From positions 1-64,000 of the forward strand of contig KZ538371.1 in the NCBI GenBank assembly GCA_000934665.2: a stretch of DNA of 64,000 nt, read 5' to 3'. The first letter of the stretch is position 1. Each line of letters opens with the position of its first letter. Below are positions 3,227-64,000 of this stretch, piece after piece. The notes below the pieces were generated by a model. That model saw nothing but the letters and a program-made list of their open reading frames with translations. It did not search any database and had not been told where the DNA came from. The translations under genes and the position numbers were made by a program. The DNA is from Catajapyx aquilonaris (Eukaryota).

Positions 3227-3931
3227 CCCCTTGTTGGCTACCAGATCTAGGCGCTGGGATTAGTTTCTGTTCACGTACTCTGAAGATACGGACAAGATAT
3301 TTTACAAATAATAACAGCTATACTTACACGGTCATGCTGTACACTATGAATATGTTTGGAACAATTTTCCACTTCTAGAAGTCGCAAAATTAATTTCCAA
3401 AAAAATCGCTGTAACAACTCGAAATTAAATTACTACCGGCCAACTGTTAGGCTGATTTAATTATGAAATACATGACAATATGCGGAATAACAGCCTTGAG
3501 AATCGTGTTATGACGAATATGCTGAAATCGCCGTACTTCGTGAGAATTAAATTAATACTTACTGCGGCTTGCCTCCCACTTCGGAAGACTCCAAAATTGA
3601 TTTAATTTTCGCAAAGTACGACTGTTTCAGCAGATTCATCATAGCACAATTCTCAAGGTTGTTATTCCGTATACTTTAACGTATTTCATAATTAAATCCG
3701 CCTAACAGTTGGCCGGAAGTAATTTAATTTCGTGTTGTTTCGGGGATCTTTTTGGAAATTAATTTTGCAACTTCTAGAAGTGGAAAATTGTTCCAAACAT
3801 ATTCATAGTGTACAGCATGACCGTGTAAGTATAACGGTTATTACTTGTAAAATATCTTGTCCGTACCGTCAGAGTACTACGTGCAAGTTAACAGAAACTA
3901 ATCTCAGCGCCTAGATCTGGTAGCCAAGGGG
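3227..3931. mobile_element. piggyBac-type foldback MITE
   Basis: TTAA on both sides (3223-3226, 3932-3935), CCCC...GGGG termini, imperfect inverted arms of ~330 bp. Confidence 0.85.
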
Positions 3932-5794
3932 TTAATCATGTTTAATAATTCACTTAATCACCGCTAGTCAAATCACATTTTAGTAAATAAATTATTCGGC
4001 TGGGCATATATTACCATGACATGACCCTGAAGGTGCGGCAAATTATTGCGCAAGTAATGAGCTAATAAATTATGGCCAATTGGTACAATTTTGCGCCATC
4101 TCAGATACAGGCCTGTGCTGAAGGGCATGAACCCCATTTGACATCCATATAAACCTCTGTAATTATGGTTCAAATTGTAATCGTAATTATACCACTGGCA
4201 CCATTTTAAAAATTAAAATTAAAAATTTTTGTCCTATCAACACTTGCAGCTAGATGAAAACGGTCAAATGTTTGGTGTCGTAACCGGTCGTAACGCCTCA
4301 ACCTCCACCGATGACTCTCATTAATCGCCGAAATTAAGTCGCTCATACAGCAGTCTCTTAATCACGACTGGGATAATGTGCTTACCTTATTGCAATGAGG
4401 TGTACCGCACTTGACGCTGATGCGATAGCAGCCCGACTCTCACCCGATTCACCGCGATTCACTCAACTATTCGCGAGAAACTGACTGCAGTGGTAGAATG
4501 ACCTTCCCTCCAAAGCGCTCTTTCCCCATGACATATATGTGAATTCTCAGAGGTGGTGCGCAATAAGCCTATATACTTTTACAAAATCAAATGCGCCACC
4601 AACAAAAAATGAACCTGTTAACCTTTGTAAATTATTGCATCTTATCATGCTCCCATATCGAGTGACTCGGATGAAATGACAAGTGACACAAAAAGGGTGA
4701 GCAAATTGTTCCTTTTTGACAAGGCCCAACATTACCTTTACCACGGGAATGACGAAAATGTCGTCATTCCTATTTCGTAATTCCCGTGAATGAGTGATGC
4801 GCTAATTAATAGTATGAAATATTGCACGATGTTCGGATTTGTCGCCCTATGAAACGCCAGCAATAAGCCTCGAGGTGTATAAAGCAGGATTTTTCGAATT
4901 TTGGAGTAGGCTCGTGGATTTGTCGGCATTACAAGAAGAAAAAAACATTACGTCTTTTCGCGTTGGATTTGTCGGGTTTTGCAAGAGAGTCCAGTTTTCT
5001 TCCCCCAATATACGGTGCATTTGTCGTGTTTTGAAAAAGAAAAGTGTGTTATCATATAGAGTGTGTCCCAAAGAATGCATTGTCACCTCCATCTCTCTCT
5101 TCTTCTTTTTTGAAAAGTGGATTTGTCGGCTGTTGAACTGAGCTCCTCTTATGTATCTATGTCTAGGTGCCATTAACTTCAACAACCTTATTTCTGAGAT
5201 AATAATTAGCATTAGCAAAAAGTGCATTTCATACAATTTCCTACGCCAAGGACTTTTCCAGTCTCAGTCACTGCCTGAGAGCTATGAGATCTCATTTTAA
5301 ATTTTTAAGCAAAACTGGCAATGTTGCAAGGAGGGGGGAGAGGGAAAAACCTACCAGGACATTTCATGACCTTACATTTGAAGCACATTATCTACTGTAT
5401 GAATCTTTAGGACTAAATGGACTTTACCAGATGATAGAGCAGAAAAAAGCTACTAACTTGTAAGTGCTGTAAATAACTCAAAACTGCCAAATTTTGACGG
5501 TAGATTTCTCCTGTATGCCCACAATATTAGCATTTTATGCTTACCCACATGAATAATACAGAGACCAAATTGTTACCAAGCAAGGAGATTTATTTTCAGA
5601 GAGATTCTGATTTAGATATATATATTGTCAGATTGATTTGAGATCACTTCAAATAGTGCGTGAGTAGAATTATGTTTTTGCTGGAAATCGGTGCTTTGAA
5701 TGTCATATGAAAAACTTTAGAATTTTGCAGCATCTTAAAATTTTGGTGACTTCCTAGGTAAGTGACTGCACTTATTAATTTTATTTAGGCCTTT

Positions 5795-8700
5795 TCAGCC
5801 TTCTTGCCACAGCTGCGTGTTCAGACATGCGAGTTGAATCAATCGATCCTCATCCTCTGCCCCTGGAATAAAGACAAAATGTCACATTGAATTGCCCATT
5901 ATTATAGGCTACACAGTCCAAGGTATTTAACTTATGCACGTACCGAAGTTTGTAGGATGAACGTATCGTCTTCCATCTTGTACGTCTTCCACTATATCTT
6001 CACTCAAACTTATACACACGGGCCCGTCATTCCAGAGAAGATCAAATCTGCCCACCCAACTGATATTATCATTGAGCCTGGAATGAGCTTAATAAATTAC
6101 TCATGGGAATCAGGTTGGTAAGGACATACTTTACTTGACGACCCATGTACTATGTTACACTATATACTGCAAAACGCAACCGTCAGCAGGGAGATGATTA
6201 TTTATTAAAATAAATAATCGGAGGAGCTACCTAGTCCAACTAATTTCTTATGGTTGTACTCCCATTCGTCAACCCAAATGCAATAGTTTAGGTCCAAAAA
6301 AAACCTAACGAAGACGTGGACTCGCAATGTCATGCATGTGATAATATTCCAGGAAACTTATAACAATACGTTAAAGTACGACAAGGAAATCACACTTCTT
6401 CGCAGGCACCTACTCGCCCTGTATTATAACGTTTGGGTTGGGGAATAGGATAGGATCAAGCTATAAGATTGTGTTCCAGAACCACAAAATATTGGCTGGG
6501 CCATAGATATCTATGGGATGGGCCATGCCACTCTGACCGGTCAAAACCTAACCTTGGATATTGAGTGCAGTAACTATGTTAGAAAGGTCGTTAAGTAAAA
6601 AGTAGACGTTATTAATAAATATTATTCCGTACTCATAGCGTTTGTCGTAGTTAAGAACTGTTAGTACGTCCTCCACAAGATTCTTATGTATGACCTCGAT
6701 ACTCTTATCAGGGACGGGGAGAACGGGTACACCGGTAACCTTTAGCAACCATCTGTAATGTAATGCAAGAGTAAGTAAAGCAGCTCTTCTGCACTGCATT
6801 AAACCTGTAAATACAATCTGTGTTCAGACATCATCAACAATATATTACGTACGGCTTCAGTGATGAATCGATCATCATATCAAAACCATAGAATCCAAAC
6901 GAGTGCTTGGACGGGCGAATGACAGGGTCGACACTCAGGAGGGTGTTCAGAATGACGGATTTTATCATCTGGAAGATCAGTTCTACTTTTCTAGGCGGCA
7001 GTTGTTTAGCAAGTCCGCGTCGGATGAAGCTCAAGGGGATCCCATGTTTCTACAAATACGAAGCATTGTGCCATGTTAGTGGTGGGCTCAGTATTTACAA
7101 ATAATTCTGCTCTTCTTCTACCATCATTCCTGACAGCCGAGCGAAGTTACGCCTTGTAAAGCGAGCATGACATTCCTGTGACAGTTCATACTTCTCAGAG
7201 GTTATCTTGGAGTATCCTTCCCGATAAATCCATACCTTTAGTGGACGGAACTTGGGAGGCAAAGAAGATTAGTTAGTTCGCATAGTGAGCAGTGAAAATT
7301 AGTTAGATCAAGGATCGTTACTAACCGACTCGACCAAGACATACATGCGTATGACAAACTTCTGCCCGTGTAGCAGGTATGGATCATCTATATATTGCTG
7401 AATTAGGCAGCTCTGCTTTCGAGAGTACCTAGGACCTGTCATCGTCCCGTCAATCAATCCACGCAGATATTTGTAATGGAGTGCCAGAACCTCCAGGCTG
7501 AAACATAAGGCAAGTTATCACTGGGTAACAGCCGAAAGTATAGAACATCCCAAAGTCAGCACAGATCCGGAGTAGTGAAAATGTCGTGACCAGCACCTCC
7601 GACTAAGAGGCAGGCAAAATGTTACACTGAACGCGTGGGCATATTCATCAGCAATTAATAGCGCGCAAGCCACTACTATATATGTGGAAAGGAAGTGAAT
7701 TGTGAGCCAGAAAAGCTCCGAATTATCATTTTTTAAATAGACTTCTTAATATTCTGGAAAGCTGGGCAAGCTGTTATTTGACCGATGAATACCAAGCAAC
7801 CTAGCTTAATCACAGGAACTGGCCAGTGCAATTTATTCTCGTGGCAAGCAATGTTACGTTATTCGAAACTATAAATCACAAGGAAAAGCCAAGGAAGCTT
7901 CATTTAGGACATGCTTGATTAGCAGCCATTCTTGAGTTCAGAGATTGTCCAGGAATGCATGGTGCAAATGTCTTTCCAAACAACAACAGGCTTTTAGATG
8001 CCATGAAGAAGAGTCGCAGAATTAAGTCCTCGCTGATAACACCAAGACAATAATATTATTTCAGAGCAAGATTCGCGGATTTCTATTAGCTCACTCTTGG
8101 TTCAGTGATTTCGCACAGCTTCTGATTTTTGTTAGGTATTCAATAATTGAGTTTGTTGAATTTCCTCAGTATTGTTGCGCTCAAAGGGGAGAAAACACGA
8201 GGAGTTGTACAGTACTGTACGCACTCGACGCTTGAAGTGATTGTTGACACTCACAACAGGTTTTTTCCGAAGTCGCCCTATCCTGTAACTGATTTCTACC
8301 CTGGTATGAGCTTGACATTATTCCATCGTACGATACAAGAACCTTGATGTAGTAAGAAAACATTCACCTTACCTACGGAATATGGTCGTTCCCTTCTTCA
8401 TTCCAAGCAAAGGCTTTAAAATCCAAGTCCCATCATCACCGTGTTCATTCAAGTACTGCTGGAACCTCTCATATTCTTGCTGCATATAATGATGTGAAAA
8501 CTTTTATTACTTATTCAATTCATGTACCCCGTAGGTCTCAAATACCCGCGCCTTTTAACAGTCGATAAATGTTGATTATAAAGGACTGAGATTTGTCATG
8601 GCATTAGCCTGCATACTGTACTGTATATTGAGGAGAGTTCTTGTACAATATAACTCGAAGAATTTTATTACCGCCTGACTTGAATTCATCATTATATTCT

Positions 8701-11700
8701 TGACTATACGGCGTGGGAACATTATTTTGAACAATTTGAGTGGACAGCATGGTTAAATACTTACGGGAAGCTTGAATGTTAGTGGCACGAAGTTGAAGCG
8801 TTCAAGATCCCCATTCCCAAATCCTATTTGCTTCATCACTGCCCTGAAAGATACATGTGTTTGTATGCTATAAACTGCTACATCATGTGCGCTCGTGCTG
8901 AAATAATTGATTGTCATGTATATGGTACAGAATACTACTCACTGATAGCAACTAATATTTTTTTGGAGTAAATGCATCTCCAGAAGCTCTTGATTATTTG
9001 GGAAGTGCGGTATGTACTGGTCCTTCAAAAACAGATGATTTTTGAACAACTCCTTGACACTACTAAATGGTCCCCACACCATATTCCATTCATCATGCTT
9101 TGCGTGTACCTGAAAGTAACAAATCCAACATCTTTATCTCGAATGTTTAATTTACACCTGACATCAAATATTGCGCCAGTATTATACTAGGGATTTTTGA
9201 GGGTCCGCAGATTTTGATTGGTATCCCAGGGACGTCCTGGAACCAATCTCCCGCGGATACGCTGAGTCCACTGTACAGTACAACCAAGTACAACCAGGTC
9301 TTGGTATAACAAACAAGCATGTAGATGCTGCGTAGAGATTAATACCCCTGATATTAAGTGTACTGCACTTATATTTTCTGTAGCATGACATTTTTCGCAC
9401 CCACCCCCTCTTTGTCCAGCTTCTGAATTATTCGTAATTTTCATTTACAGTATCTGGATATAGACTCCTCGAGGCATTTTTATTGAGCCGATAATAGACA
9501 CAGTACTTGTTTCAAAACTCTCCATGACGGAGCTGTTACGTAAGGTACTTTCTGATTGGTGGTAACTCCATATACAGCACCGCATTTTTTGTTCTTAAAT
9601 GTCACATTTTAAAATATAAACGAGCCCAATAATGACAGTAAAAGTAATTATTTGATACACTGTACTTAAATCACCTGAAATGTAGGCTCTGGAGTGTTTT
9701 GGTAGTTATAGGAGAGGGATTGGACACTACAGTGTATGGCTGTTTCAAAGCCCCATAACTTGATTCGCTAACACCTGACATTTTGGCTCTAAACCTAACA
9801 ATTTGGTGTCACAAGGTTAGGCTTCCATGCCTAGAGTTAGTCACTCGACTAGGAAGTGTACTCTACACTGGAAGTCGGAGCTACCCCGGAGCTACCTCGG
9901 AGGCCCATGAGAAATGTACACTGAAGGTACCAATCAAGTAAATACCCTCTCGTTCCATGCCCTACCAAATGCCACATGTCTCGACACGTACATGACTTAA
10001 CGTTTTGTCCCATTCCCCCACAAAAAAGAGATGTAATTAAACATGACTCACTCTCCTCCATCCAAGGCACTGCATAGCATAATGAATCAAGCTGCTCTTG
10101 TCGAAGCACTTGTAGCTTCGAGGCATGCCACTTCTCTGCGCCAGCTGCGAATGCTTCCTCTTCCTACGGCTAAAGTGGAGTGCCAGCCTGGGCAATTTAC
10201 TCCTGAGCTTCCTGATGCGCCTGGACAGAGAGCACATTCTTTTTTTCTCACAGGTTGTAAGTGTTCCCCTGGAAGCGAAGGATGACCACTCTGTACTGTC
10301 TCCCACATCTGATGAGTTGCAGATCTTTGCAGAGGGCAGTGGAGACCGATAAGTCCATATAACATCCGGAACTCGATATAAGGCATTCTCGAATGGGGTA
10401 TGGACTTGCCACTCTCCTTCGTCGTCCTGATAGATTGCTGTGGGATAAGGATTGTCCTTGGCGTGTTTGGGCGATTCCCACGCTAAGCCAAACGCATCGT
10501 GCCCGATCTCGGAAATACTGCACAGACGCTTTGACATCCGCTTAAGAGTGAGATTAATATAGAAACATTCCGAGACTTTTAATTCACGATGTCCGTGTTT
10601 CTTGCTGTATGGCTTGTATGACTTGGGACATCCAGCATGTTTCAAAGGCCGAGTTAAATGCATTGACGAGGCTAAGAGGTGATGACTTGCCTTGAATCTC
10701 TTGACGTAGCGCTCGGTTAACATGGCTGCACGCATAAAAGTGCAAGAGACAACAGATGACACAAAAGTTGGTTTCCACCTCACGGCATGATCCACTTCTT
10801 CCCAAATACTCGGATTAGTTTCCCTGAGTCTTTCTCTGGAGACTTCCTCAAGCCTCCCAACTATTTCATTGTAGTCAAATTGTGGCATATAAGTCGGGCC
10901 AAGTCGGGGAAGCACCTGAGGAATCACACATGGCAAGAGAGAGAGTTCCACACTAGCTTCTTGCGCCACCAATAGTTCTGGTTCACCTACGTCTAGTGGG
11001 GGTACTAGAGGGGGCGGGGGAGCACAGAGCCACCATGATAAAAATCCGTTTGACCATAAAACCCTCATACGAATTCTCACAATTAAATATTATGATTAAT
11101 ATACATACCCTCTTGCGTACTTTGTTCCGAAATACATGAGGTTTTATCTGAATCGCTACATATCCGGCTATCCCGATTGTGCTCTTCTCTCACATTCTGC
11201 TCATACATCCCATAACCAGAATGTGGCCTAGATGGTGGACCATATGCAGTTGGAGTTGGTGTTCGACTCACTTGGGGTGGTAGGTCACTTTGAAATGGTA
11301 GGAAGATTCGTCGGGGTTCGTCCATACACCATCCCACCTCATCTACTGCTAATGTCACTTTACTTGGCGTGCTGGACCCAGACTCCAAGTCAGTTATACT
11401 TGAATCCGACATATCTTTCGCGTAATTCTCACAAATCTGTGGGACATTACCTGACAGGGCATATTTATCGTAGCGTTCCATCGGTGACCGGTAATTCTTA
11501 GCATCTGGTTCTGTGATATATAAGCCAGTCTTATGTTGTAATATCGAACTGATTGAAATGCAGGTTGCGGGATGGGCCTGAACAGCGACCTGTTTCGGCT
11601 GTTTGTCTGACAGCGAGTCAGTTTCATCAATGTCTGAACACTGCGCAGAAATGCAATCCTGGGTTCTTACACTGGGACGGAAAGTGTTGTCATTAAACTT

Positions 11701-13441
11701 TGCAGTATGTTTCGCAAGTTGTGGCCCATGCACGGTACGTGACCTATTGGGAGCACTGGCAGGGATTTCTCGGCTAACATTGCAACAAAGTCGTCGGGCC
11801 TCCCGAGTTTGGCTACGAGCAGTCTTGGATCGACCTCGTGAGGGATTCCTTCTCCTTTGAAGTACATGTAGTGATTTTTTTTGAGTATGCGATCCAGTTC
11901 GTGCGAATCTCGGTCCAGATTTTGAAACTGCGGAAGTTGTCTGTATTGGATCCATCTTGTCCTTCGCAAGTGGTTTTCGCTCTATGGTGGTGTCTAGATT
12001 GAAATTTTTGGGTTGGCTAAACCATGAATTTGACGCCGCGAGCAGTTCATTTATGCCTTTTGACGGGACTCTCTTGCCATATATTACTTCGTGGTCCATC
12101 CACGAACTACCGGAAACGAAGCCGCTGCAACCCACTTTCCAAGGCTTGTTGCACTCGGCATGTACTCCAGTTTGTCCGCGAGACATAGACGTAATTCGTC
12201 CTGCGGTTGTCTTTCGTACCCGTGCTCCGCCAGACTTCACTTGAGTACGACGTGATTCTAGAAGAGTGTCACATAATTATATATGGCATCCTAAAATGTC
12301 AAAAACTAATTCGATTAATGGACTCCAAAACAAAAAGATTCAACTTCGCATCGGCAGGAATCTCTTAGCTCATCCCACAATAACACACTTAATTTATAAT
12401 AATTATGCACTCCACAATTTAATGTCAATTTGGAATCAATGGCATTAGAGGTCATGCACCAAATCAAAATTAAACCAATGTTCATGATTGAACCCCCTCT
12501 TTTTGCAATCTATAATGAAATTCCCTGTCTAATGTTGTTTTTTAAATCTGCCATGTCTGGTAGACCCAATTTCGCAGTTAAGTTTTTATGACCTCCACAA
12601 GTACCTGTTGAAAAGTAACTGCTAGGTACAGTAAATAAATAAATAATCTACTGGTTGGCCCTTCGACATTATTTTCTCTCCCGCACATTTTCGACTTGTT
12701 TTGGGCCAATCATTACACTAACGACCAGATTGTAAGATTGTAAGAAATACCTTGAATATACGTACAGGGTGTTTCGTAAAAATACCAACAAATTTCTAGA
12801 GTGAACTCAAGGGTACCAGTGGGTCCGTTTATGAGGCAGTACCGTTTGGTTTCTGAAGCATTGTTACCAAGACAATGGACTGCAAATACATAGTGTAGCA
12901 TAATATCATGGTAGCCTTTCCTCCATGTGGCCTTACCATTCTAGTTTAAATTTTAGGTGTAACTCTGAAACTTTAATTCAAACTGACATCTCATTATGTG
13001 TGCAGGGCAGCTGATGGAGTTGTCGCATGATGCATTAGCCACATACGAGCAGAAAAATGCACTCTTCATTCAGACCAATTATTCCAGTAACAAAGCTTCA
13101 GAACCAAAATTACACCTCCAAACAAAGTGACCCTCTTGCCTACACCTTCATGTCTGACTCCTCAGTGCAACCATCATACCCCTATCTTGTAATTCAAACT
13201 TTCTAAGTGTAAATAGGCTTAAATTACGAGTATAACTCTGTGGATAATTAGAACAATAATTCTTTGACTTACCTACAACACGCTTAGTTGCCTCAGTCAC
13301 TTTCGGTCGGGGAAGACGGGGAGGCAAGCCAGTTGCCATGACTGGATGCCTTGCTTTTCTGATGTTGTACGTTGATAGCCGATTGTACCTACGCAATTCT
13401 TCATAGTTATACAAAATGGGGTCTACTTTCGTGGAATCCAT
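5795..13441 (-). CDS. TTLL9/TTLL1-like tubulin-tyrosine-ligase-family protein with long N-terminal extension and degenerate active site (~1172 aa)
   Basis: Phase-consistent GT-AG exons: 13180-13441, 11109-12257, 10052-10986 (or 10992), 8943-9109, 8765-8843, 8373-8479, 7326-7497, 7122-7250 (donor less certain), 6853-7049, 6633-6752, 5944-6077, 5795-5862. Motifs: LGWRRV..EWNMVW, HFPNNQEL, FVPLTFKLP, WILKP, IQQYIDDPYLL.GQKF.IR.YVLV, YGFDMMID..LKPWLL, and VGRFDLLWNDGPV (TTLL9-like GFDLMWNDGPV). AATAAA follows the stop. Confidence 0.85.
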
Positions 13442-16400
13442 AGCTGGCTCTCTCCTTGAATAATGGCCTATTTTCCCAACAAAATTTTAGTCTCGGGCTG
13501 TCTTCACTAGAAGTAATCAAATTAGTTGCTCCAGGTCGATAAATAGACTCCGTCACCTGAGAAAACAAATATTCCTTACAATTATTAGTGTGTGCAGACT
13601 TCCATGTTGATTGTAGATGGTGGTCAATTTTTGCCAATTTGTCAGTAGAAGTCAAAGGCACTTGCAGTGAGATCAAATATTTAGGAAAAGTGGCCAATTA
13701 TATTGTAGTTTTAAAAATTTATGGTGAGAAAAGCAAGCAGAAAAAAACAGTGCAATTTTACCGGACACGATTATTTTAGATTGATATGTAAGCCTACATA
13801 GGATGTGAATATGCCTTCCTGCAGAAGGAACTTTCAAAGAAACTACGCCGGTTGCATTATTGTGCTGGGAAAAATGGTATAAGCTTAATATGCAAACATA
13901 TCAAACCGGGTTTTAAAACTTTCCTGGGAAACTATAGAGATCACCGAAAGGGTTTACTTTCCAAATGTTCGTTTCCAGAATTGTCTTTTAAGTTTTACCT
14001 GCATCAAAAGGCCCCCTCAAGTCCAGGACTCAAACACTTTTTGCTTGTGACCCCTTAAATTACGAAAGGGAGTGACTAGTGCAACAATGTTCCTAAATCT
14101 GTCATGTGTTGATATGTGGAATCATTACTCTGGGATGTGGAGGCATGTGAACTATATATTGCAGATATATTGTATCTCCTTAGCTTCTGCTCATGATAGT
14201 CTAGTGCAGTATAGTGCTGCATTAGTCGCTCTAGCAGAAATGTATAAATCTCAACAATGCAATGCTTTAAAGGCTCACAATAACACACTCACCTGGACCA
14301 CACACAATCAGCCAAATACCACTGGAAAGCCTAGGTATGGCAAAACCAGCAGTTAGAGGAAAAGAACCTCGCTTCCGTCGCCTGTCGACTGATCTAGGCA
14401 GGATATAAAGAGTAGCTGTTGTAGGCGAGTAGTAGTGAAGACTGTAGAAGAGATCTGGGGAGAAAATATTTTGAAATATTAACGTTTTCCATAATATTAG
14501 TGACCCTTGCGTTCACCAGTTTTTAAAATTCCCACTTCTTTCGCTCACTTTGCGCATGAAATTATCAGTACAGAAATGTAATCCATATAGTCTCTTCGCC
14601 ACAAATTTTCTCCTGCAAGATAGGTAGGGCACAAGCCTTATAGACTATAGTTTCTTATAATAGCAGCAATATGTTAATCGAGATAAAAATGTCAGTTTCC
14701 TCAGCTCTCTTTGCTTGCTATAATGTTGATGAACCCAGCATAATAATTATGTCGAATATCCCAAAATTCTCATCCTACAAGACTGACAGTAGGCTATGCC
14801 CAATTATTTTAGTCCTTACATTCTCACATTTTCCACCTGCACAGTAGCATCACAAAATCCTGGGTGGTGGCTTGTCGAACTACCGGTATTCCGAGAATTC
14901 TTTCCGTCAATGTGTGTTCCATTCTCCAGCCTGTAACATCTCTCACCCTCCCTGTGTGTACCAGGCTCTCGCATTGTGCGATGTCAGTATCTGTCAATAT
15001 ATACTCGGAAAGCACCGGATCGCAAGACAATAGATAATCCGAATGCTTCCAGGTATAAGACTCGCAGTCACGCGCCCAGCTCGAGCCCGAAGAGCAGAGG
15101 CAGGTAGACAGCGATACCATGACAGTACACCCGAGTCCATATGTGCTGGTGAGCAACTTCGACGCTACTGTCAGCTGCTAACTATCCTCGCCAGTTTCGT
15201 AAGCATCCATATCCGTTCAATTTCTCCGGAACTTTTTCTAGTATTTTGTGTAATCAATTCGAGCCATTTGGAAATACAAATAGGAGTTATATGAGTGAGG
15301 TCACCTGTGGTCAAGTGCGGACAAAGGGATGATGCAAATCATCATGACTGCTGTGCACTCGGTTTAGGTCCTACTAGTAGGCCCTATATACGTTCCTGAC
15401 TCAATTATGGCACCCAGATTGAGAGCCAAGGTGAAATACGTGCGTCCTCATGGAATCGGCACGATACTTTTTCCGAAGGTGCCAACACAGGAGAGAACGC
15501 GAAATTTCCTCTTACATCACGGGCGGAACCGCGGGTAATTCAGTCGGTTCAGTGGAACCACGCAAGGACCCCGTAAAGAAAGTAATGCAAAACTTGCAAA
15601 TAAAATTAGGAGAAATGCCGAGCTTTCTGCAGGGAACGAGGGTGCGGCATTTTCGAACTCCGGCTGCGAGACGCCATATCTCTACACGAAATGTTCAACA
15701 AAATTTCCTTAACATGATGCAATTTACCTTACGGTGTTCCGCGTGCACGAATCGTGTTAATTTTTATACAAAATAAGTGTTTTTTTTTCTGATATCTAAT
15801 ATTTCTTCCCATGACGATAACCCGCTCAATGCAGTTGACACCAATTTATGGGTTTTTGAGCTAGAAGTATTTTGCAAATATGTTCCAGAAACACATACTG
15901 TACTCCGTCATACACTGCCACCTGACGGCACACTTCTTAGGAAAAGCTTATATCTTCGTCCGCTACGGAGCGTGCAGTGCTCACGGTGCTCACCACTTCT
16001 TGGCTGCTGATAATGCAAGACTGTGTCGAAAGAGAGAGCCATTGTTCTTAAGGCACATAGTTCAAAACCACAGGCTTCGTTACGATTTTACAGAATAGGA
16101 TCACAAACCATGTTCTGGTAAAATTACACCTGCTGAGAAGCATTGAAAAATTAATTGTCGAGACAAACATGAGTAACGGTACCACTGAGAAAATTACGCC
16201 ACGAAGTAAATTATTGATGATAAGAATTAGCTTATTCTATCAAATTTAACTCATACAAAAGTCGCTGTTGAGATCATACACGGAAACACATGTCCATGGC
16301 ATGATCAAAACCTCTCTCTAATAATTCCAGGGTGCGAGTAATAAGCGCCGCAAGAATTACTCCTGATAAATAGCCTTTGCAGTAAATGAAGGCCACATGA

Positions 16401-26142: not shown

Positions 26143-26707
26143 NNNNNNNNNNAAAAAAAAAAAAAACTGGGAGGGTCAGGTGCTCAGATTTTACCGACCT
26201 TCAAAGCTGAGTTAAGGGCCGGTGACGAGATTTTCAAGTTCATGGCCGCCAACATCAACACTATAAAAAACAGTCTTGGCGGTCAAAGCTGTATACTAAG
26301 CGAGTGGCGGTTCGTTGGGAGCGACTAACCCTTACGATGCTATCTGGATAACGGGAATTTGGAAGGTGGGCGGGATGAGGAACCAGTTGCATGGTCAGAG
26401 GCCCCTTCCTGGACTCTTCTTCACATACAGTATGCTTCGTTTTTCTTTAGGACTTTTTTTTTTGCCAGCAATCCATTAACAACATGGTGTGTGACTGCTA
26501 GACTCTCATGCAACATTGGCACGTTATGTAACGCGTTTATTGCCTGTTTCTACGGATCATAGATCCTCATTTCCTGGGCAATGTACAAGTCCATGTACCG
26601 TATTCTCTCCAGTGGTGCTTCACCATTGTTCTCAATTAGCAAAAATGGCGTAACAATGCTGATCAGCATCTAAAACCTTATTGGGGGGGGGGGGGGGNNN
26701 NNNNNNN
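26143..26707. other. Assembly gaps (N runs at 26143-26152 and 26698-26707; also a single N at 29497)
   Basis: N runs sit next to poly-C/poly-G tracts. Confidence 0.95.
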
Positions 26708-29700
26708 NGATAATTTTAATCCAAAGTGTTAAGAAATGTTCCCAGCCTCGTAAAAATTACACGAGCATTTTCATGAGAAAATGAAAATTCATTTTGTAAC
26801 CTAAACTGCCTAGAGGGTACCAGCAATATTTACATGGATCGTGATGAATACTGCAATCACTTCAAAATGCTTATTACCCGGACCTAGGATCATGTATTAT
26901 AAACATCTTGGTTCCTGAACGGTCAAGTAGAGCACCGGTTTCAGACGGACCTGATTCAAAATGTAACTAGATCGCATAAAATCTGCACACATTTTCTGGG
27001 GTGAGATCCTCCACTTACCATCTTAAGACGATTTTAAAATTTAACGCCCATTTTTTAAAACATTAAGCAGGGTGGTGCACAACCCATGTCACCAGTTCAA
27101 GAGAGGATTCCAGACAATCACAACCAACGTGGAAAGATGCAAACAAATATTACGCTAACACTAATTGACGACATAAAAATAACACAGACAGTCCCTCTAC
27201 TTTCCCGGGGAATTTGGATGACAAACGAAGAAAGTTCTGTGTACAATTCAGATCCCTCGGAAACTGAAAAAAAAAGGAAAGGTAAAAACGGAAGGGTTTA
27301 AAAAGTAGCGTGCTAAATACACGTTTGGCACGTCCTATTCGATTAGTCCTGGCTCTACAAACCCTTTTTTTGAATGAGACTCTCACTTTTTTCCCCAATT
27401 TATATCGGCCTATCGTCACGTCTAGTAAGGATAGTAGCCCAGCAGCATATCGGCTGATTATCCTTTGTCTAGAACCAAGTTTCACTTGTGAGAAGTCTGA
27501 GATTTTTCTCCGCGATTGTAAACGAATTCACAGCACGAGAGAAAATTCCTTTCAATAATTTATAATATGCAAATATTTTGTAACGTGTAAATGGTGAGTA
27601 TTAACGTTTCAAACCACGCAATTTCATCGCCTTACCCTTAATATAGCGCAGGACTGCAATTTTTCGCGATTGCTGATGAGAATATGTCGGACCGGATGTT
27701 TCTAAAATTTGATATCATTTTACACTGACCTTATGACATTAGTTGTGTCGAAAGTGTGTCTCCGATTTATGTGTAGTTAGTCCACATTTCAGGGCTCATC
27801 AAACTTAAACCGGTCTACATTATATATAAAAAAAGAACAAATGAACCAGCAAATAATAGTAATTACTCCTACTCATAATTCGCCTTGAACTACTTTTGCA
27901 TACTATTGACTTCTATCTCTCATCAAGCGGAAATTATAAATACCAACCACCCTTATTCTCGAAACAAAGTTAGCCTTCTCTCGACACGAAATGTGCAGCA
28001 ATCACATTTCCTATGCCATGAGATAGCTCCGATTGGGCAAAGATGGAGTCCAGAAACCACACCCTGAACTTTCACAAAAGCCAAGGCAGATCGGCAATTA
28101 GGCCACATGAACAGAATATGGAGGAAATGGGATGAGTAGTGTTAAGGGGGGTGGATGAAATAAAATAAAAAAATGAGAGAAAAAAAAGGAGCCCTGGAAG
28201 GAGCATGGAAGGAGGGTGGGGGGAGATGATGACCCTCTGCCAACATAGGCAGAACACCATTTGTCGAGTGTGTGTTGGCCAAGTAGGACGTGTTCGCTTC
28301 ATAAGGAACTCTACTTGCAAGGTATGTGCAAAATAGTTATACGAATCCGGATGTTTTATTTCCTCGATATAAATCGAAGCTAATGTATTCTGATCATTTT
28401 TATATCGATTGTTACGAGTGGGGTTAGATATTTTGCATTACAAGTGACAGTTTATTCATACTTGCAGTGTGGAGGCCATGCACGACCTATAAGTACTGCA
28501 AGGTCATGTACCAAATTTGCATGGGATGTCTGTTTGAAGTGCTATAATATCCGTGTAACATTACGTTGAATTTAATATTGCCGTATATCACTGGATTAAC
28601 TGTCGGAACGTCACATACAGGTTAATGACGTCGGAAAAGTAGCGGGTTTGTTGTATGACGTAAAGAACGGATACAGATTCTAATAATTCGCCGCAAAAAC
28701 TATTCTTCCGTTGGGATTTGTGTGCAGTTACAATGATAAACTTTTCAAAAACATTTTTGCAATGCAATATTTAAAAACCATCTTAAAATACTGGTGTCAA
28801 ATAATTTCGCAAAAATTATTTTCATCAAAACGGTGTGATTCTGCAATAATGACTAATCCGCATTAACCAAACCACAATGTTTATATCCACATCCATGCTT
28901 GTGCAGAAGTAAGACTTCCAATGCTCAGACACCAGTTGACACGTGTGTACATTAATGCGTCCTGCTGCTTAAAAAAAAGACATACACAGACCCAGAAACG
29001 ACCTTGCGTGACTGACACTGACCAACTGAAATTTCTAAGCCTTTCTGCGCAAGCACGACATGTGGACAGTATTCAAGGGCATGCTAATTATACTGAAAAT
29101 AGGAATTGTGTGCGTTTTTTTATTACGCAACAAAAACGGACAATCTCCAAATTTTGCCTTAATCGCACGTTACATCAGATATGACTAAACATTACCCTTA
29201 CTACAAGGTAACTGACCGAGATGTGCACGACAATATATAGCACCGCAATTTAGTTCCCAATAATAATTATTAAAACAATTACACTTCCAAATTATTAAAT
29301 AACAAAGGCCATTGTGCTCGTGCTAACATTTCAGCCACCCTGCATGCGAACCCAATGGCAGTAAACAACTTCCTGATCTTGTACCCGAAAAAAATATATA
29401 TGTAATTTGGCACGAGCTCTTATCCTCGATTAGGTCAGTACGCCCATACGCGTGCAAAAACTCCTTTTCCTGATTTTCACTGTCAATATGACCCCCNCCC
29501 CCCCCCACCAAAAAAAAATGCAAACAGGCGCGACATAGGTAACATCACCGTCAAAATAGTACCCGCTTCTATTCGGCACCTGTCGTAAATTCGTAGCCTC
29601 CCGCCTAGCAAAAATTTATCACTTAGCAGCTTTTACTTTTCTTGATGACAGAGCTGGAGAAACGTGGTTTTCCAATGGCGAGAGCGTGCGTTTCTCAGAG

Positions 29701-38700: not shown

Positions 38701-41700
38701 AATATTTCGGATCAGACACTTATCAATCCAACATCCTTAATAATGATGGAAGTGTTTTTGGAGCAGGGCAACTGCCTAGGGGCCGGCCATCATGCACAAT
38801 CCCCACACCCACCCACTCACACCATTCTGTCATTAGAAGTCTGCTCTTTGCGGAACCCCGACACTTCCTAGCGGAACACACTTTGTAAACCGCTGGTGTG
38901 CATGATGGAACTGATCTCCCACCTGAGTTAATTGCACCGCTGAGGATTTGTGCCTGCATGGCTGGAAGGGATGTTCTGATACACGACATGTTCCTTACAT
39001 GCAAAAGCCAGCCACCAGCAGGCATCCCATGTTCAACTATGCCGTACAGTACATAGTAACTTCCTGTCTCCTTCCTTCCTTCCTTCCTGCAATGTGCAAG
39101 ATTCTCAAAAAAAAAAAACAATCTTGCGTGCTGATCTAGCAATTTAGCTTCAAACAACAACTGACAGGAGAGATTGCCTCGAAATAGTTGTGTTAGCTGC
39201 CTCTATCATCCGTCATTAAAATATTATTTGTATACACCCCTCCTTCCTGGAATGCTGAGGTGAAACTGACTTATGCGAAACAGGATTAGACCAAACGGGA
39301 ATTGGCAGAGAAAGCCCTGCTCTACTACTCGAATGGACCAGACTGGGCAAAAGAGAGGCCGTTGCACCTTGCACTTGCATAACTACGGTGCACATGAGGA
39401 AGCAAATTGAACGGCCTTGTGGTTACACCCACTCAAAAAAGATTCTGCCTCCCTTCCTCCCCAGTCCCTCTTTTCCCTTAGTCATACCTAGTGAGTTCTC
39501 AGTTTCCGACAAGCATGGCGAGTAGCCCTGAACTTCGCCCGCCCTTGTTGCTGACTACGCCATTTAAAATGAAAATGGCCAACTGTTGTTGTTTTTTTCT
39601 CGTCCCGCCTGAAGATGCGAGACTTCTGCCTGGTCACGTCACAATTTGAACGAAACATGAGGACACTTTAATTTTGGCATGCACGGCCTGCACAAGTCAA
39701 CTATTTTGACGCCTCGCGTCCAACTAACCCACATGGTGACAACTTAGAGGTGAATATCCTGCTTATTTTTAAACCTTGTCCTCAGAACTTGTAATGCATC
39801 CGGGCCTTTTGTTCTGTCCTATGCAATTCCGGTGTCAGCAGAATAAGTGGCACTACGAGGTGACACAAGAGAGCAAATCATGACCGGCCAGTGGTTATTC
39901 TTACCTACTTTTATTTTAACAGCTATGCCATTCAAGGTGTAACAGATGCGTCGTGCTTATCTATAACACATTCCATTTACGTTATAATTAGCGCTTTTGT
40001 TTTCCAACATGCATTGCTCCAAAACCACGCAATTTAATAACAAGTTCGTAGGAGGCCAAGGAAATAAGGGGATCGAAGTGCTCCTGTTGCATACACCCAA
40101 CGAATTCAATCAAAAATGACATAGGATAGTGGTGTGATTTATTGCCAGTGCATAGTTCCGTTATACTGCTCTCACGATTTCCTTTCATCCAGTTATGTCC
40201 CGGTGCATGAATTGCAGGATCTGATATGCTGGAGCTCATGCTCGAGCAGGCCTAATCGAACAAATATACCCAGTGGAAAGTGCAGTAAAACTGTAATATT
40301 GATAATATTGATTGAACAAGTAGCCTGTACACAACAAACCTTCACATCGCAAAATCATTCGACTTTGACTCCGATCGTTCTACGTGTCATGTCTTCAAAT
40401 ATAAAAGCCAGAATCAATTCCTTTTTAGCACATATACCTATTAATTTCAATATTTCTTTGCAGAGTGAGCGAAATCGTCGCCCTTCTATCACTGTCCACA
40501 ACTTTATTTCTCTTCATTCACACGAGGGATCTCAACGCCAGAATCCAGGAGATCGAAGAAAAGGCCTACACTGGTTACAGTTTCACAGGTGCAGTACCGC
40601 TATCTTGTTCCACACTACCATAACTGCGGTTGCTACTAACAGCCTTCGCAGGAGTAAGAATGGCGCGAAATTTTGACATTTAACAACAGGTGGTCGGACC
40701 AATTGGCTAGCAGAAACAATCCCACCATCTCTCGTTGAATGATATAACTTCAAAATACAGTAAAATAGAACCCGTAAACCATGATATACCTAACAATGCT
40801 TGTGAAGTTGGGTAAATTGGAAGCATGAGATGAAGGGTATATCATAACATTTCCAGTAGCTGTTTCACGAACCATTAATTTCAGGCACAAACAAAAATGA
40901 ACCTCAGGAAGACTGGTTGGTACGGAAGGCGTCACCTAGGTTGGCTTCCACTACCGCCAAATCTGTCCCGGTCGTTCGAGTAAGTCATTACTGATACCGT
41001 AGTGTCGACCAAAGCTCATGTCATACCACTTGCCACTTTGTGCTCTCATAGCTCAGCTGGTAGAGCAACAGCTACTTAAAAAGCTGGAGGTCCCGGGTTC
41101 GATTCCTGGTGAGAGCATTTGCTGGTTAAATGACGTGGAGGTCACAATTCAAGCTAAATAACTGCTTCCAAAAGCAGCCTAGGATAAAGCTACTTTGAAT
41201 CTGCCCTCATTTTCCTTGCCTCAGTTCTTAAAACCCGGCCGCCTTGAGTGATACATTTTTTTGATAACCCCCTTCGTTGTGGCAGCTGAGTGCATGGGAG
41301 TTGAACAACACCAGAAAGGCGGGCAAGGAGGTGCTCTTCTTCAACAGGGTGCCCAAAGTGGGCAGTCAGACAGCCATGGCCCTCCTCAAGTTCCTAGCCC
41401 AGAACAACGACTTCGCCTTCCATCGAGATCGTACTCAGAAAGTCGAGTACATCAAGCTCTCCTATGTCGAGCAGGTAAAGGTCGAGGCTACCAAGGTCAG
41501 CACTTTCTCCCTATTTTGTATTTGAACTCCTCTCTTCCTCATACCACCCCTTATGTGCAATTTACACGCGCGACTGATTCCGCGAGAACATGCTACTTCG
41601 ATCCCCGCCACACCCTTGACATTGTACTCGGATTACGTGCCATGCTGACGGTACTTACCGACATTTCGATACGACTTTGATTGCAGCAATATTATTAACG

Positions 41701-53114: not shown

Positions 53115-54912
53115 TCAGAAGTCGTCATCGTCATCAAAGTTTCCCCGACGACGCACAAACTGAAACGGGTATAAATATAAATGCCATGGGGTAAGAAAAT
53201 TAGCCTTCACTTCTTACCTTGACCTTTGTGCTGGCCTTCTGCGTTTTCTCATTGACCTGCTCCAGCATTTCTATCAAGTTTGGCTCCGAGAGTCGTCCTT
53301 GAATTTGTCCAAACTGTGCCATTCGCATTAGCATGGCCTCTATCATCTGCGCCTTCTCTGGTTTGACTGCCATCAATGTGTTCACTGAAAATAATCAATC
53401 AGAAATGCACAATTATAAATACAAGGGCTGTAAATAAAATGGCGGCAACACATCTCTAGAAAATCAGTGAATTGTAGGAAATTTACACCGCTTATGTAAC
53501 AGATAGGTTGGGTCTTGATCTAACTTCAGGGCATAATGCGAACGTCCCACCTCTACATCGCTTGCGCAGTAAATTGTATAATGTGAGATGTTGCGATCAA
53601 CGGGTCTAAAGGCGATGTTGTCCAAATTCGAGCAAAGGTGCTGGTTAAAAATTGATAATTTGTCAGGAAGGGCTTTTAGAGGCTTGTGGGGAACATGCAT
53701 TGCCATATAGAACAGTTGCGCGGTGAGCAAAAGCCTTCCATCAGGGAAGGCAAAACGTGACAGATGAGCCCCGCCCCGGAAGTCCACATGCAAGTGAGAA
53801 ACAAGTGGCTGCTGTTTCCGCATTGATGGAGAACGATCTGAAGTGGACAATCGTTTAGTTAGCCAGTGAGACAGGCACCATCTCTGGCCAGCTTTGAGGA
53901 AGAAGCGACATCATTGTCTGCAAAATCCGCCCATCATTTTGCACAGCAACACTTGACTGCATGTTGCAGAAGTTGTGAATCAGTTATTCACTCGTTGGGG
54001 TTGGGAAACCCACCATACTCCCCTTACACTAAGCCACTGTGACTTTGACTTGAGTCTGAAAATGAAGGAACTGCTTTGCAGCATTCGTTTCAAGACTATC
54101 CCAGAATTTCTTTAGACCACTCTATACGAAACATCAACCAAACCGGGGCGGCCGATGGCATCCTTCGACTTCCACATCGCTAATGACGGGTGTTACACAT
54201 TGCTGGTGACTACATTGAAGGACTCTGAAAGTTTGAAGATGGCGTGTATTTCCAGTCCCAAGTAATTAAATATTTGCCACTATTTTATTTACAGCCCTCG
54301 TATATTCTCTCGGACAAATGCTGAGATGTCAACATGACAAGCTCCAACTTTTTTTTACATTTGCATCCAATATTAGTGAAATTATATGGTTATGGCGAAT
54401 TGCTGAGTTGTGTACAATCCGCGCGCCACCTAGCAACTAAACGGTCCGCTCACTAATGCCGCACACCTGACGCATCTGAGCGCACCCATTCCTTGTCTAT
54501 GAACCCCCTCTAGATGGCGTTTCCGGACACGGGTTCCTCTGTGAAATAAGTTTGTCTTGGTCCCCTCCATTACCCCTAGAAGTGTGTAAAGTTGGCTCGT
54601 AAACACCCTTTATATTCAAAAACTCCTCGGCCGTGGCCCTCCCTCTCTCCCCAGTTAGTCCAAATTTTTGCCATGCTCACTGTCTTGTATCAACAGTTCA
54701 AAAATAATTGTCCCGTCGCGGCGAACTGTTGATACATAACAAACAGAGGTACAATGTTTTTTACTGCACTCTGCCTAAAATTTCCTCTGGAATGACTTAC
54801 ACCTGGCACGAGCAGCTTGGTCCAAGATCTGGCTGAGCATAATATTCTTCATATCAGTCTCCTGCTTACGCCTTTCAGCTTCAGCTGAAGCATTTGTATT
54901 CCCTGCAGCGGC
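53115..54912 (-). CDS. PDCD5: Programmed cell death protein 5 (5'-incomplete; first coding exon not securely located)
   Basis: Exons 54801-54912, 53218-53384 and 53115-53159 give ...DMKNIMLSQILDQAARARLNTLMAVKPEKAQMIEAMLMRMAQFGQIQGRLSEPNLIEMLEQVNEKTQKASTKVKFVRRRGNFDDDDDF*. Minus-strand AATAAA at 53005-53010. Confidence 0.93.
53422..54300 (+). mobile_element. Degenerate mariner transposon in a PDCD5 intron
   Basis: TA TSD; TIR C(A/G)AGGGCTGTAAATAAAAT; decayed HPPYSPDL.PCDF-like segment near 54010-54050. Confidence 0.85.
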
Positions 54913-54970
54913 CTGGAAGCAATTCAAATTCTTAAAATTGGAACAGAAAGTCCTGTGTGTACACAGAAAT

Positions 54971-55191
54971 GAGGGGTGTGGTGGAAAAAGGCGATAGCCT
55001 TCATTTTTGTCATTTTTTACCTAAACACCTAGCAACTATGTAATAGACATGACAAACAGTTTGGTATATTCCAAGTTCACGTATCATGCACGAGACAGCC
55101 ACACAGATTTGTTAAGAGAATGCAGACTTAAATTTGCTCTCCTGAAAAATTACACTTTTGTGGGTTATCACCTTTTTTCACCACACTCCTC
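54971..55191. mobile_element. Sola-like MITE, copy 3
   Basis: GAGGGGTGTGGTGGAAAAA TIR, TSD AAAT. Confidence 0.8.
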
Positions 55192-63383: not shown

Positions 63384-64000
63384 TAACCTGTGTCCTTGAA
63401 AGCTCTGTCACCTTTGCTTCCAATATGAACCTGTATTATTCACCTGAGAGGGCTCAAGGAAACTAAAGCCTTCCAGAAATTACACAATGTTGTTTCAGGT
63501 TGGTACATTGTTTGGAAGCTGTTTTTGTCACGGTTCAAGTTTGTGCGTGAGCTGCTTGGAACAGCCGGTGGATCAACTCTTGAAGATGATCCACTGAGCA
63601 TCAAAAGCAGAGTGAAAGTGCGACGGGATTAATGGCAGCGATGTACGTTAAGTATGGTGTGCTGTAATGATCCACAATATGTACTGTATGAGGAAGGCTT
63701 TGCTCGAGGCTTTGCTAATAATGCTTGGTGCATTGAAATGATGACTGATATTTAGTTTTCCGAATGCTTAATTGTTCATTGTGATAGGAGGAACTCTTTC
63801 GGACCAATACTGCATAAAGTTAACGTTGTTTTTAATATAGTATAACTTCTACATAGTACACTCAAACATCTTTAAGTCAAAGTGTTATATAAGTTGAAGA
63901 AGATGAAATGGTATTGGTTAGAGTCTTCATGTTAAGTACAGTACTAGAAATTAAACTGTCCCAAGTTGAATTTTTATTTCTAAAAGTTCTCCATCAGGGA

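Follow-up and report, generated by a model that had tools for sequence, protein, structure and literature searches.

The first 64,000 nucleotides of contig KZ538371.1 of Catajapyx aquilonaris (GenBank assembly GCA_000934665.2; this whole stretch is called the window below) carry a minus-strand gene that resembles TTLL9 throughout its C-terminal part and differs from it at many residues of the active site. The question raised by this locus is whether such a gene encodes an enzyme, a decaying copy of one, or a protein that has been kept for something other than catalysis. TTLL9 is a ciliary tubulin polyglutamylase, corresponding to TPG1 of Chlamydomonas; by glutamylating tubulin, TTLL9 adjusts the beating of cilia and flagella, and the control of the level of this mark is poorly understood. 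The analysis suggested that the gene probably encodes a maintained, TTLL9-derived animal protein, which has very probably lost ligase activity and acts non-catalytically. If so, the gene would provide a natural experiment on which parts of TTLL9 matter beyond catalysis, among which the C-terminal tail stands out, and its product would be a candidate for regulating or reading the tubulin code. A dying copy would be an ordinary pseudogene with no wider interest.

A scripted search for exon borders, combined with the sequence, yielded a gene of 11 coding exons on the minus strand, running from 12186 to 5795 and encoding a product of 1067 amino acids. All ten introns are of the GT-AG type, with lengths of 104, 942, 99, 285, 875, 75, 72, 100, 555, and 81 nucleotides. 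The spliced frame contains a single stop, the terminal TGA at 5797-5795, and none elsewhere in its 1067 codons; an AATAAA sequence lies just past it, at 5785-5780. The original prediction had placed the gene at 6633..9109, with an open spliced frame and canonical splice sites over 12 exons. The open frame and the canonical sites were borne out; however, this interval contains seven exons rather than 12, and the gene extends well beyond it, with two large exons upstream (12186-11109 and 11004-10052) and two downstream (6077-5944 and 5862-5795).

The presence of a multi-exon gene of the TTL family on the minus strand was confirmed by matches of the exon translations to the Pfam family TTL, PF03133 (40.6 bits for exon 6, against a cut-off of 20.1, and 16.5 and 20.0 bits for exons 7 and 8), and by their alignment to TTLL7, TTLL6, and TTL from the PDB. 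A reference set was then obtained with a TTLL9-like fragment, P0002, which had been returned by an HMMER search with exon 6. The best 120 of 631 proteins matching this fragment were listed, and the named proteins among them are mostly TTLL9. A TTLL9 profile, that is, a hidden Markov model (HMM), was built from the 62 listed sequences of 400–530 amino acids. Of the 120 rows, 83 did not fully cover columns 27-400 and were removed, as were 17 of the 37 left, each being more than 80% identical to a row that was kept; the result was a set of 20 non-redundant complete TTLL9s, with members from animals and chytrid fungi as well as unnamed protist-like sequences. Some of the public TTL-family entries were irregular: nearly identical TTL segments are repeated in tandem in P0002, P0003, and P0005, and P0003, P0005, P0007, P0091, P0041, and P0077 resemble faulty gene models.

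The TTLL9 profile found eight core exons of the gene in order, and nothing comparable was found elsewhere in the 64 kilobases (kb) of the window. The alignment begins at the end of exon 2, where ..YKC...LGW stands against ..FKC...PGW of the TTLL9 consensus. The spliced core matched the profile as a single domain over HMM positions 30-419, with a score of 206.5 bits (E 3.4e-65), the best among the TTL domains available. TTL domains other than those of TTLL9 scored 34–135 bits (60–135 bits for the four used in the phylogenetic analysis below) and ended by position 385. The core is thus colinear with TTLL9 from the ..FKC...GW strand to the VGGFDLLWNDGPV..DR..QL tail. No other stretch of the protein is as well kept as this tail, which is encoded by exon 10 (5944..6077; HMM positions 376-400, E 0.0011; donor GTACGT at 5943): VGRFDLLWNDGPV retains the motif of the TTLL9 consensus VGGFDLLWNDGPV at 12 of 13 residues, and a sliding window of 13 residues reached 83% identity here. 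Retention of conserved columns was 10/15 in the tail, in comparison with 35–44% in the three ATP-grasp regions. In three non-TTLL9 proteins, the best-scoring domain did not extend past position 373, and a single weaker domain reached 385; we take the tail motif to be specific to TTLL9. As judged from its colinearity and tail motif, the gene is TTLL9-derived, although it lies outside the ordinary range of TTLL9 scores, and the C-terminal part of approximately 390 amino acids appears to have descended from this ciliary polyglutamylase with its layout kept from the first strand to the tail. A quick IQ-TREE analysis of the model together with the 20 TTLL9s and 4 outgroup domains (25 rows in all; two more outgroup proteins were left out for their short domains) placed the model unresolved beside an outgroup and outside the TTLL9 crown; this tree carries a long-branch warning, and a careful search was unfinished.

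Comparison of the model with published active-site motifs showed that nine of 18 positions differ, and each of these columns is invariant, or close to it, among the TTLL9 rows; the counts given here are those among the best 120 of 631 proteins. Exon 5 (8373..8479) retains WILKP, including the Lys of WIxK, and its Gly loop has changed from GKGI to KKGT (codons 8398-8387), so that the first Gly of GxGI (G in 106/106 rows) is Lys and the Ile (I in 105/106) is Thr; the second Gly is retained. Exon 6 (7326..7497), with the sequence QQYIDDPYLL.G.KFVIRMYVLV, keeps the Gln and Tyr of QxYI and the Lys and Arg of KFxxR, and the Asp of KFD (D in 120/120) is replaced by Val (7355-7353). In exon 7 (7122..7250), which encodes PLKVWIYREGYSK, the Arg of GFAR (R in 78/80), the second essential Arg corresponding to TTL R222, is replaced by Lys (7208-7206). 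The HLTN region of the same exon is degenerate, with Thr for the His (H in 77/80) and Arg for the Thr (T in 73/79). The previously proposed change of HLTN to RFTR was correct insofar as the motif is broken in any register; however, the ungapped alignment gives TRRN, in which the Asn is kept, and the RFTR register keeps the Thr at the cost of the Asn. Exon 8 (6853..7049), with the sequence KHSFGFYGFDMMID, has Gly for the Glu of FExxGxD (E in 85/86) and retains the Gly and Asp of this motif, the latter being the Mg-binding residue D318 of TTL. It aligned to TTL residues 283-326 and to HMM positions 283-342 (E 6.8e-11), and WLLKVT of exon 9 (6633..6752), following on from this alignment, was placed opposite W328-N333 of TTL. 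Here, both ligands of ExN are lost: the Glu (E in 83/85), corresponding to TTL E331, is Lys (6742-6740), and the Asn (N in 83/85), corresponding to N333, is Thr (6736-6734). Three TTLL9 entries also deviated at the ExN columns, probably owing to mispredicted exons rather than as true inactive forms.

These results agreed with the original prediction for the substitutions ELTRK to ELLEM, QGKGI to KKGT, KFDxR to KFVIR, GFAR to GYSK, CFELYG to SFGFYG, and WLxEVN to WLLKVT, all of which are present in the spliced model when compared with the TTLL9 profile. The same was true for the residues said to be retained (WILKP, QxYI, the Lys and Arg of KFxxR, and the Asp of GxD) and for the minus-strand codons assigned to the Lys and Thr of WLLKVT and to the Val of KFVIR.

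The consequences of these changes can be judged from studies of other TTL-family proteins. In TTL, two magnesium (Mg) ions are held by D318 and E331, and the E331Q variant is catalytically dead (PMC3563685); the N333 equivalent has been counted as an Mg ligand as well (PMC7293026). The activity of TTLL6 is described as requiring each of the residues equivalent to TTL R202 and R222, as well as each of two Mg ligands (bioRxiv 10.1101/2020.06.07.139295). Mutation of GxGI abolishes the activity of human TTL, according to unpublished data cited in PMC3520985, where six motifs for adenosine triphosphate (ATP) and Mg are distinguished in TTL domains. Four of these six are broken in the model (GxGI, the Asp of DxR, the Glu of FExxGxD, and both ligands of ExN), and the second essential Arg is lost beside them. 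The Gln at the position of TTLL6 Q180, which is of the elongase type, is retained and shared with TTLL9 (bioRxiv 10.1101/2020.06.07.139295). With Mg ligands lost, along with the Gly loop and one of the phosphate-binding Arg residues, the sequence and the published mutants together suggest that the protein is very probably not a ligase and would be unable to form the acyl-phosphate intermediate.

In addition to the active site, the divergence affected the core as a whole. The model retained 34 of the 77 columns that are invariant in the 20 TTLL9s, and the remaining 43 (56%) were changed. The key catalytic columns were changed no more often (8/17) than the other TTLL9-invariant columns (35/60; Fisher p=0.42). 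The divergence is general across the core, and the active site is not specially rewired, contrary to the original suggestion of systematic rewiring. Identical or conservative residues were found at 39/52 hydrophobic, 13/17 Gly or Pro, and 31/54 polar conserved columns, which represents a trend only.

In spite of this divergence, the reading frame remained intact. Neutral evolution of the 417-codon core was simulated with substitutions only (no indels), the base composition of the introns, and a kappa of 2. Of 300 runs at each of three levels of amino acid change, none was free of stops, and the mean number of stops was 5.5 at 20%, 10.2 at 36%, and 14.8 at 55%, while the real gene has zero. Moreover, among the 6425 stop-to-stop pieces of the window, the two longest, with 397 and 350 amino acids, are those of exons 1 and 2; the next, which is the longest outside the gene, has 213. 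The simulation thus showed that the frame was kept open by selection, and together with the two longest open stretches it indicated that nearly all of the divergence arose while selection on the open frame was acting.

Evidence of transcription was obtained from run X5, which represents another sample and study of the same organism. A contig of 452 nucleotides from this run covers 10263-10050, 9107-8942, and 8842-8771 with zero mismatches. It omits 942 and 99 nucleotides at GT..AG borders (CT..AC on the plus strand), so that 10052 is joined to 9109 and 8943 to 8843. A second X5 contig spans 10697-10438, within exon 2. No such joints were found in run X1 (DNA), in which a 21-kb contig with a depth of 29 is collinear with the window and identical to it over 4977-13500. 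Since the introns are lacking at their exact borders in X5 and are kept in the DNA of X1, X5 carries sequence derived from spliced RNA. The contig therefore confirmed two introns of the model, between exons 2 and 3 and between exons 3 and 4, and showed that one transcript contains both the TTL-like exons and the upstream open frame at 10040-11089. Thus, at least the 5′ half of the gene is transcribed and spliced. Of the exons in the revised model, exons 2–4 are joined exactly in this run; exons 1 and 5–11 had no cover in X5, which has no bearing either way on their expression. The same applies to the runs recorded as RNA, none of which contains the stretch. Taken together, the selection for an open frame and the exact splicing favor a maintained protein, and the lost residues are essential elsewhere in the family; on these sequence-based grounds the earlier proposal of a catalytically dead but maintained TTLL9-like protein appears to be supported.

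Several observations weigh against this reading. An open frame attests past selection and not present function, and the inactivity of the protein is a prediction. Retention at hydrophobic columns did not differ significantly from that at polar columns (p=0.067; a value of 0.13 was also obtained). The score of the core is far outside the range of 536–819 bits of the 20 TTLL9s, and its terminal branch was 5.99, compared with a family median of 0.27, which would also fit a copy freed from constraint. Neither an orthologue nor a paralogue was found by searches with single exons. The spliced X5 contig is shallow, with a depth of 2.5, and stops in exon 4, ahead of the catalytic exons. To stay open, the frame has to pass through the donor of exon 7 (GTAGAA at 7121), a weak site unsupported by RNA, and exon 1 was joined to the gene by inference only.

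One rival explanation is a transcribed pseudogene, that is, a dying TTLL9 duplicate which was inactivated recently and whose transcript is noise. This explanation agrees with the change of 43 of the 77 TTLL9-invariant columns, with the fact that catalytic and non-catalytic columns were hit alike, with the branch of approximately 20 times the family median, and with the weak donor and low contig depth mentioned above. On the other hand, a decaying copy would hardly be left with zero stops or frameshifts in 1067 codons and GT-AG borders at all introns, given that no neutral run was stop-free even at 20% amino acid change. It also does not account for exact splicing at two introns or for a C-terminal TTLL9 tail at 83% identity. 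We therefore consider the pseudogene explanation unlikely, and a maintained, non-catalytic protein the better reading of the data.

The maintained protein could also be the only TTLL9 orthologue of the organism, in a fast-evolving lineage or in one with changed axonemal glutamylation; this explanation differs from the preferred one solely in whether the gene is an orthologue or a paralogue. The end-to-end colinearity of the core with TTLL9, and the lack of a second TTLL9-like match within the 64-kb window, are consistent with it. However, the animal, chytrid, and protist TTLL9s in the set all retain the catalytic columns, and their identity to one another is at least 44% (median 55%), in comparison with 25–30% between the core and the same 20 sequences. 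The other genes of the window have ordinary Pfam matches and show no sign of extreme divergence across the genome, which is weak evidence. Searches for relatives were of limited power: no close relative of the exon 6 or exon 10 translations was found in a word-indexed protein collection, and an exhaustive HMMER search with exon 6 returned nine matches, none of them close, although single exons are weak queries and absence is not shown by them. On balance, a sole and fast-evolving orthologue seems rather improbable.

The original prediction had offered a further possibility, namely that the Lys at the position of E331 replaces a metal ion and allows different chemistry; on this reading, the protein would ligate or transfer something in an Mg-independent reaction. 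The Lys of WIxK, the Lys of KFD, the Arg equivalent to R202, the Asp equivalent to D318, and the Gln that corresponds to Q180 of TTLL6, all retained, would be in line with an enzyme of altered chemistry. However, the Gly loop, the Asp of KFD, the Arg equivalent to R222, the Glu of FExxGxD, HLTN, and the Asn equivalent to N333 have also been lost, several of which are described as individually required in TTL or TTLL6 (PMC3563685; bioRxiv 10.1101/2020.06.07.139295; PMC3520985). In addition, the changes are no denser in the active site than elsewhere, unlike in a redesigned site. Such an enzyme is therefore very improbable. Finally, although the independent run X5 covers exons 2–4 and not the catalytic exons, and X1 may be the assembly's own source, it is extremely unlikely that the substitutions are artefacts of assembly errors or of a wrong gene model, since the X1 contig matches the window exactly, the borders of two introns were confirmed, the codon differences number dozens over eight exons, and sequencing errors would not yield in-frame missense changes alone.

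A precedent for a maintained TTL-like protein of this kind, that is, a homologous TTL domain with catalytic residues missing, is TTLL12, a proposed pseudoenzyme with a SET-like N-terminal domain. In PMC3520985 and PMC10883266, TTLL12 is described as having no ligase activity, and its TTL domain as serving tubulin binding. Both proteins have a TTL-like domain without ATP/Mg motifs behind a large unrelated N-terminal region. However, TTLL12 is old and widely conserved, lacks two of the six motifs (PMC3520985), and keeps EVN; the gene studied here is TTLL9-derived, lacks four of the six, including EVN, and has no SET-like domain (no Pfam match). It also has no known orthologues, unlike the conserved TTLL12 subfamily. 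In the full-text literature, with most subscription journals outside the scope, a search for TTLL9 together with “pseudoenzyme” returned the TTLL12 paper only; within the same scope, related searches returned nothing on inactive TTLL9 paralogues, and TTLL12 was the only TTL-family pseudoenzyme discussed. That a TTL-type fold can be employed to bind proteins, outside the ligation of tubulin, is also shown by yeast Pby1, a TTL-like ATP-grasp protein reported to bind the decapping enzyme Dcp2 near the active-site cleft (PMC7293026). Pby1 is different in that it keeps the equivalents of E331, D318, N333, and R202 and, according to the same paper, is thought to be an active ligase, whereas E331 and N333 are lost here.

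A further difference from TTLL9, besides the broken catalytic motifs and the low identity, is an N-terminal extension of 677 amino acids ahead of the TTLL9-colinear core; most of the best 120 of 631 proteins are shorter than 530 amino acids, and the longest listed has 685. The extension is rich in Ser, Arg, Pro, and Lys and has a net charge of +26. Its basic patches lie at approximately residues 81-140, 461-500, and 601-660, the last one directly before the core, and reach +10 to +15 per 40 amino acids; exon 2 includes a very basic segment with a net charge of +15 in 40 amino acids. The extension is encoded by exon 1 (11109..12186; ATG at 12186-12184, donor GTATGT at 11108, 359 amino acids of the Ser/Arg/Pro/Lys-rich sequence) and by most of exon 2 (10052..11004; donor GTGAGT at 10051), in which the core starts within the last ~25 codons. 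We infer that exon 1 belongs to the gene; the 104-nucleotide GT-AG intron links it to exon 2 with the frame preserved, and an additional 5′ exon ahead of it is possible. No Pfam family was found in the extension. Among Atlas look-alikes, none was usable for exon 2, and the matches of exon 1 scored only 0.76. A single-sequence AlphaFold2 model of exon 2 was uninformative (mean predicted local distance difference test score, 36.7).

Canonical TTLL9 occurs in a complex with FAP234/LRRC9, which is described as stabilizing TTLL9 and carrying it into the flagellum (PMC3873882). This complex and the precedent of TTLL12 led us to propose that the function of the TTLL9-like protein would be binding rather than catalysis. 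The TTL-like fold, together with the TTLL9 tail that has been kept, may bind tubulin tails or a TTLL9 partner of the FAP234/LRRC9 type, the basic extension of 677 amino acids may hold the protein on acidic microtubule surfaces, and axonemal glutamylation could thereby be regulated or competed with. What the protein binds and what it does in the cell are, however, matters of speculation. The complete scheme, in which a lineage-specific, TTLL9-derived dead subunit docks onto such a partner or onto tubulin tails through its tail and fold, sits on microtubules by means of its cationic extension, and acts as a regulator, reader, or competitor of axonemal polyglutamylation, is put forward tentatively and with low confidence. 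If true, this would be the first known pseudoenzyme derived from an autonomous-partner-dependent glutamylase.

The remaining exons of the gene are exons 3, 4, and 11. Exon 3 (8943..9109), the first exon of the original prediction, encodes the N-domain, including ELLEM in place of ELTRK, and matched HMM positions 52-101 (E 2.5e-05). Exon 4 (8765..8843), which the X5 contig reaches across the 99-nucleotide intron, is covered over 8842-8771. Exon 11 (5795..5862) continues in frame after the donor of exon 10 and ends with the stop codon. Three candidate features were rejected during the construction of the model. A small upstream exon at 9808-9674, with an ATG and an RFR motif, was discarded, as the X5 contig places the end of the upstream exon at 10052. 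The donor GTAAAT at 7098 looked stronger than the one used for exon 7; however, no acceptor gave an in-frame product with it. The weak tblastn matches of TTLL9 at 11730-11380 (E 0.06–0.9) were regarded as noise, since their frame is non-coding and runs through a stop.

Other parts of the window contained exon-sized Pfam matches to Sulfotransfer_2 (41268-41522, plus strand, 24.3 bits) and to the PDCD5-type dsDNA_bind family (54778-55020, minus strand, 23.4 bits), as well as a match to DUF4750 at 63429-63629 on the plus strand (42.4 bits, E 5.5e-11). These matches point to further genes of an intron-bearing genome of the animal type. A weak match to Mob_synth_C, the C domain of MOCS1/MoaA type in molybdenum cofactor synthesis, with 21.9 bits (below the cut-off of 37.4; E 1.7e-4), was located in an exon-sized open piece at 4550-4801 on the minus strand, downstream of the TTLL9-like gene and on the same strand. 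The first 2000 nucleotides have a guanine-cytosine content of 52%, compared with approximately 41% elsewhere, and include several open stretches of 150–213 amino acids on the plus strand without a Pfam family. Runs of N, representing assembly gaps, occur at 26143-26152 (10), 26698-26708 (11), and 29497 (1). A high-copy repeat was located at 3500-4167, where the summed depth of X1 was approximately 13,000 (3500-3833) and 2,300 (3834-4167), in comparison with approximately 29 in the single-copy flank; many variant letters and inverted joints were observed in this repeat. Lesser rises in X1 depth were found at 5170-5503 (175) and 12518-12851 (134).

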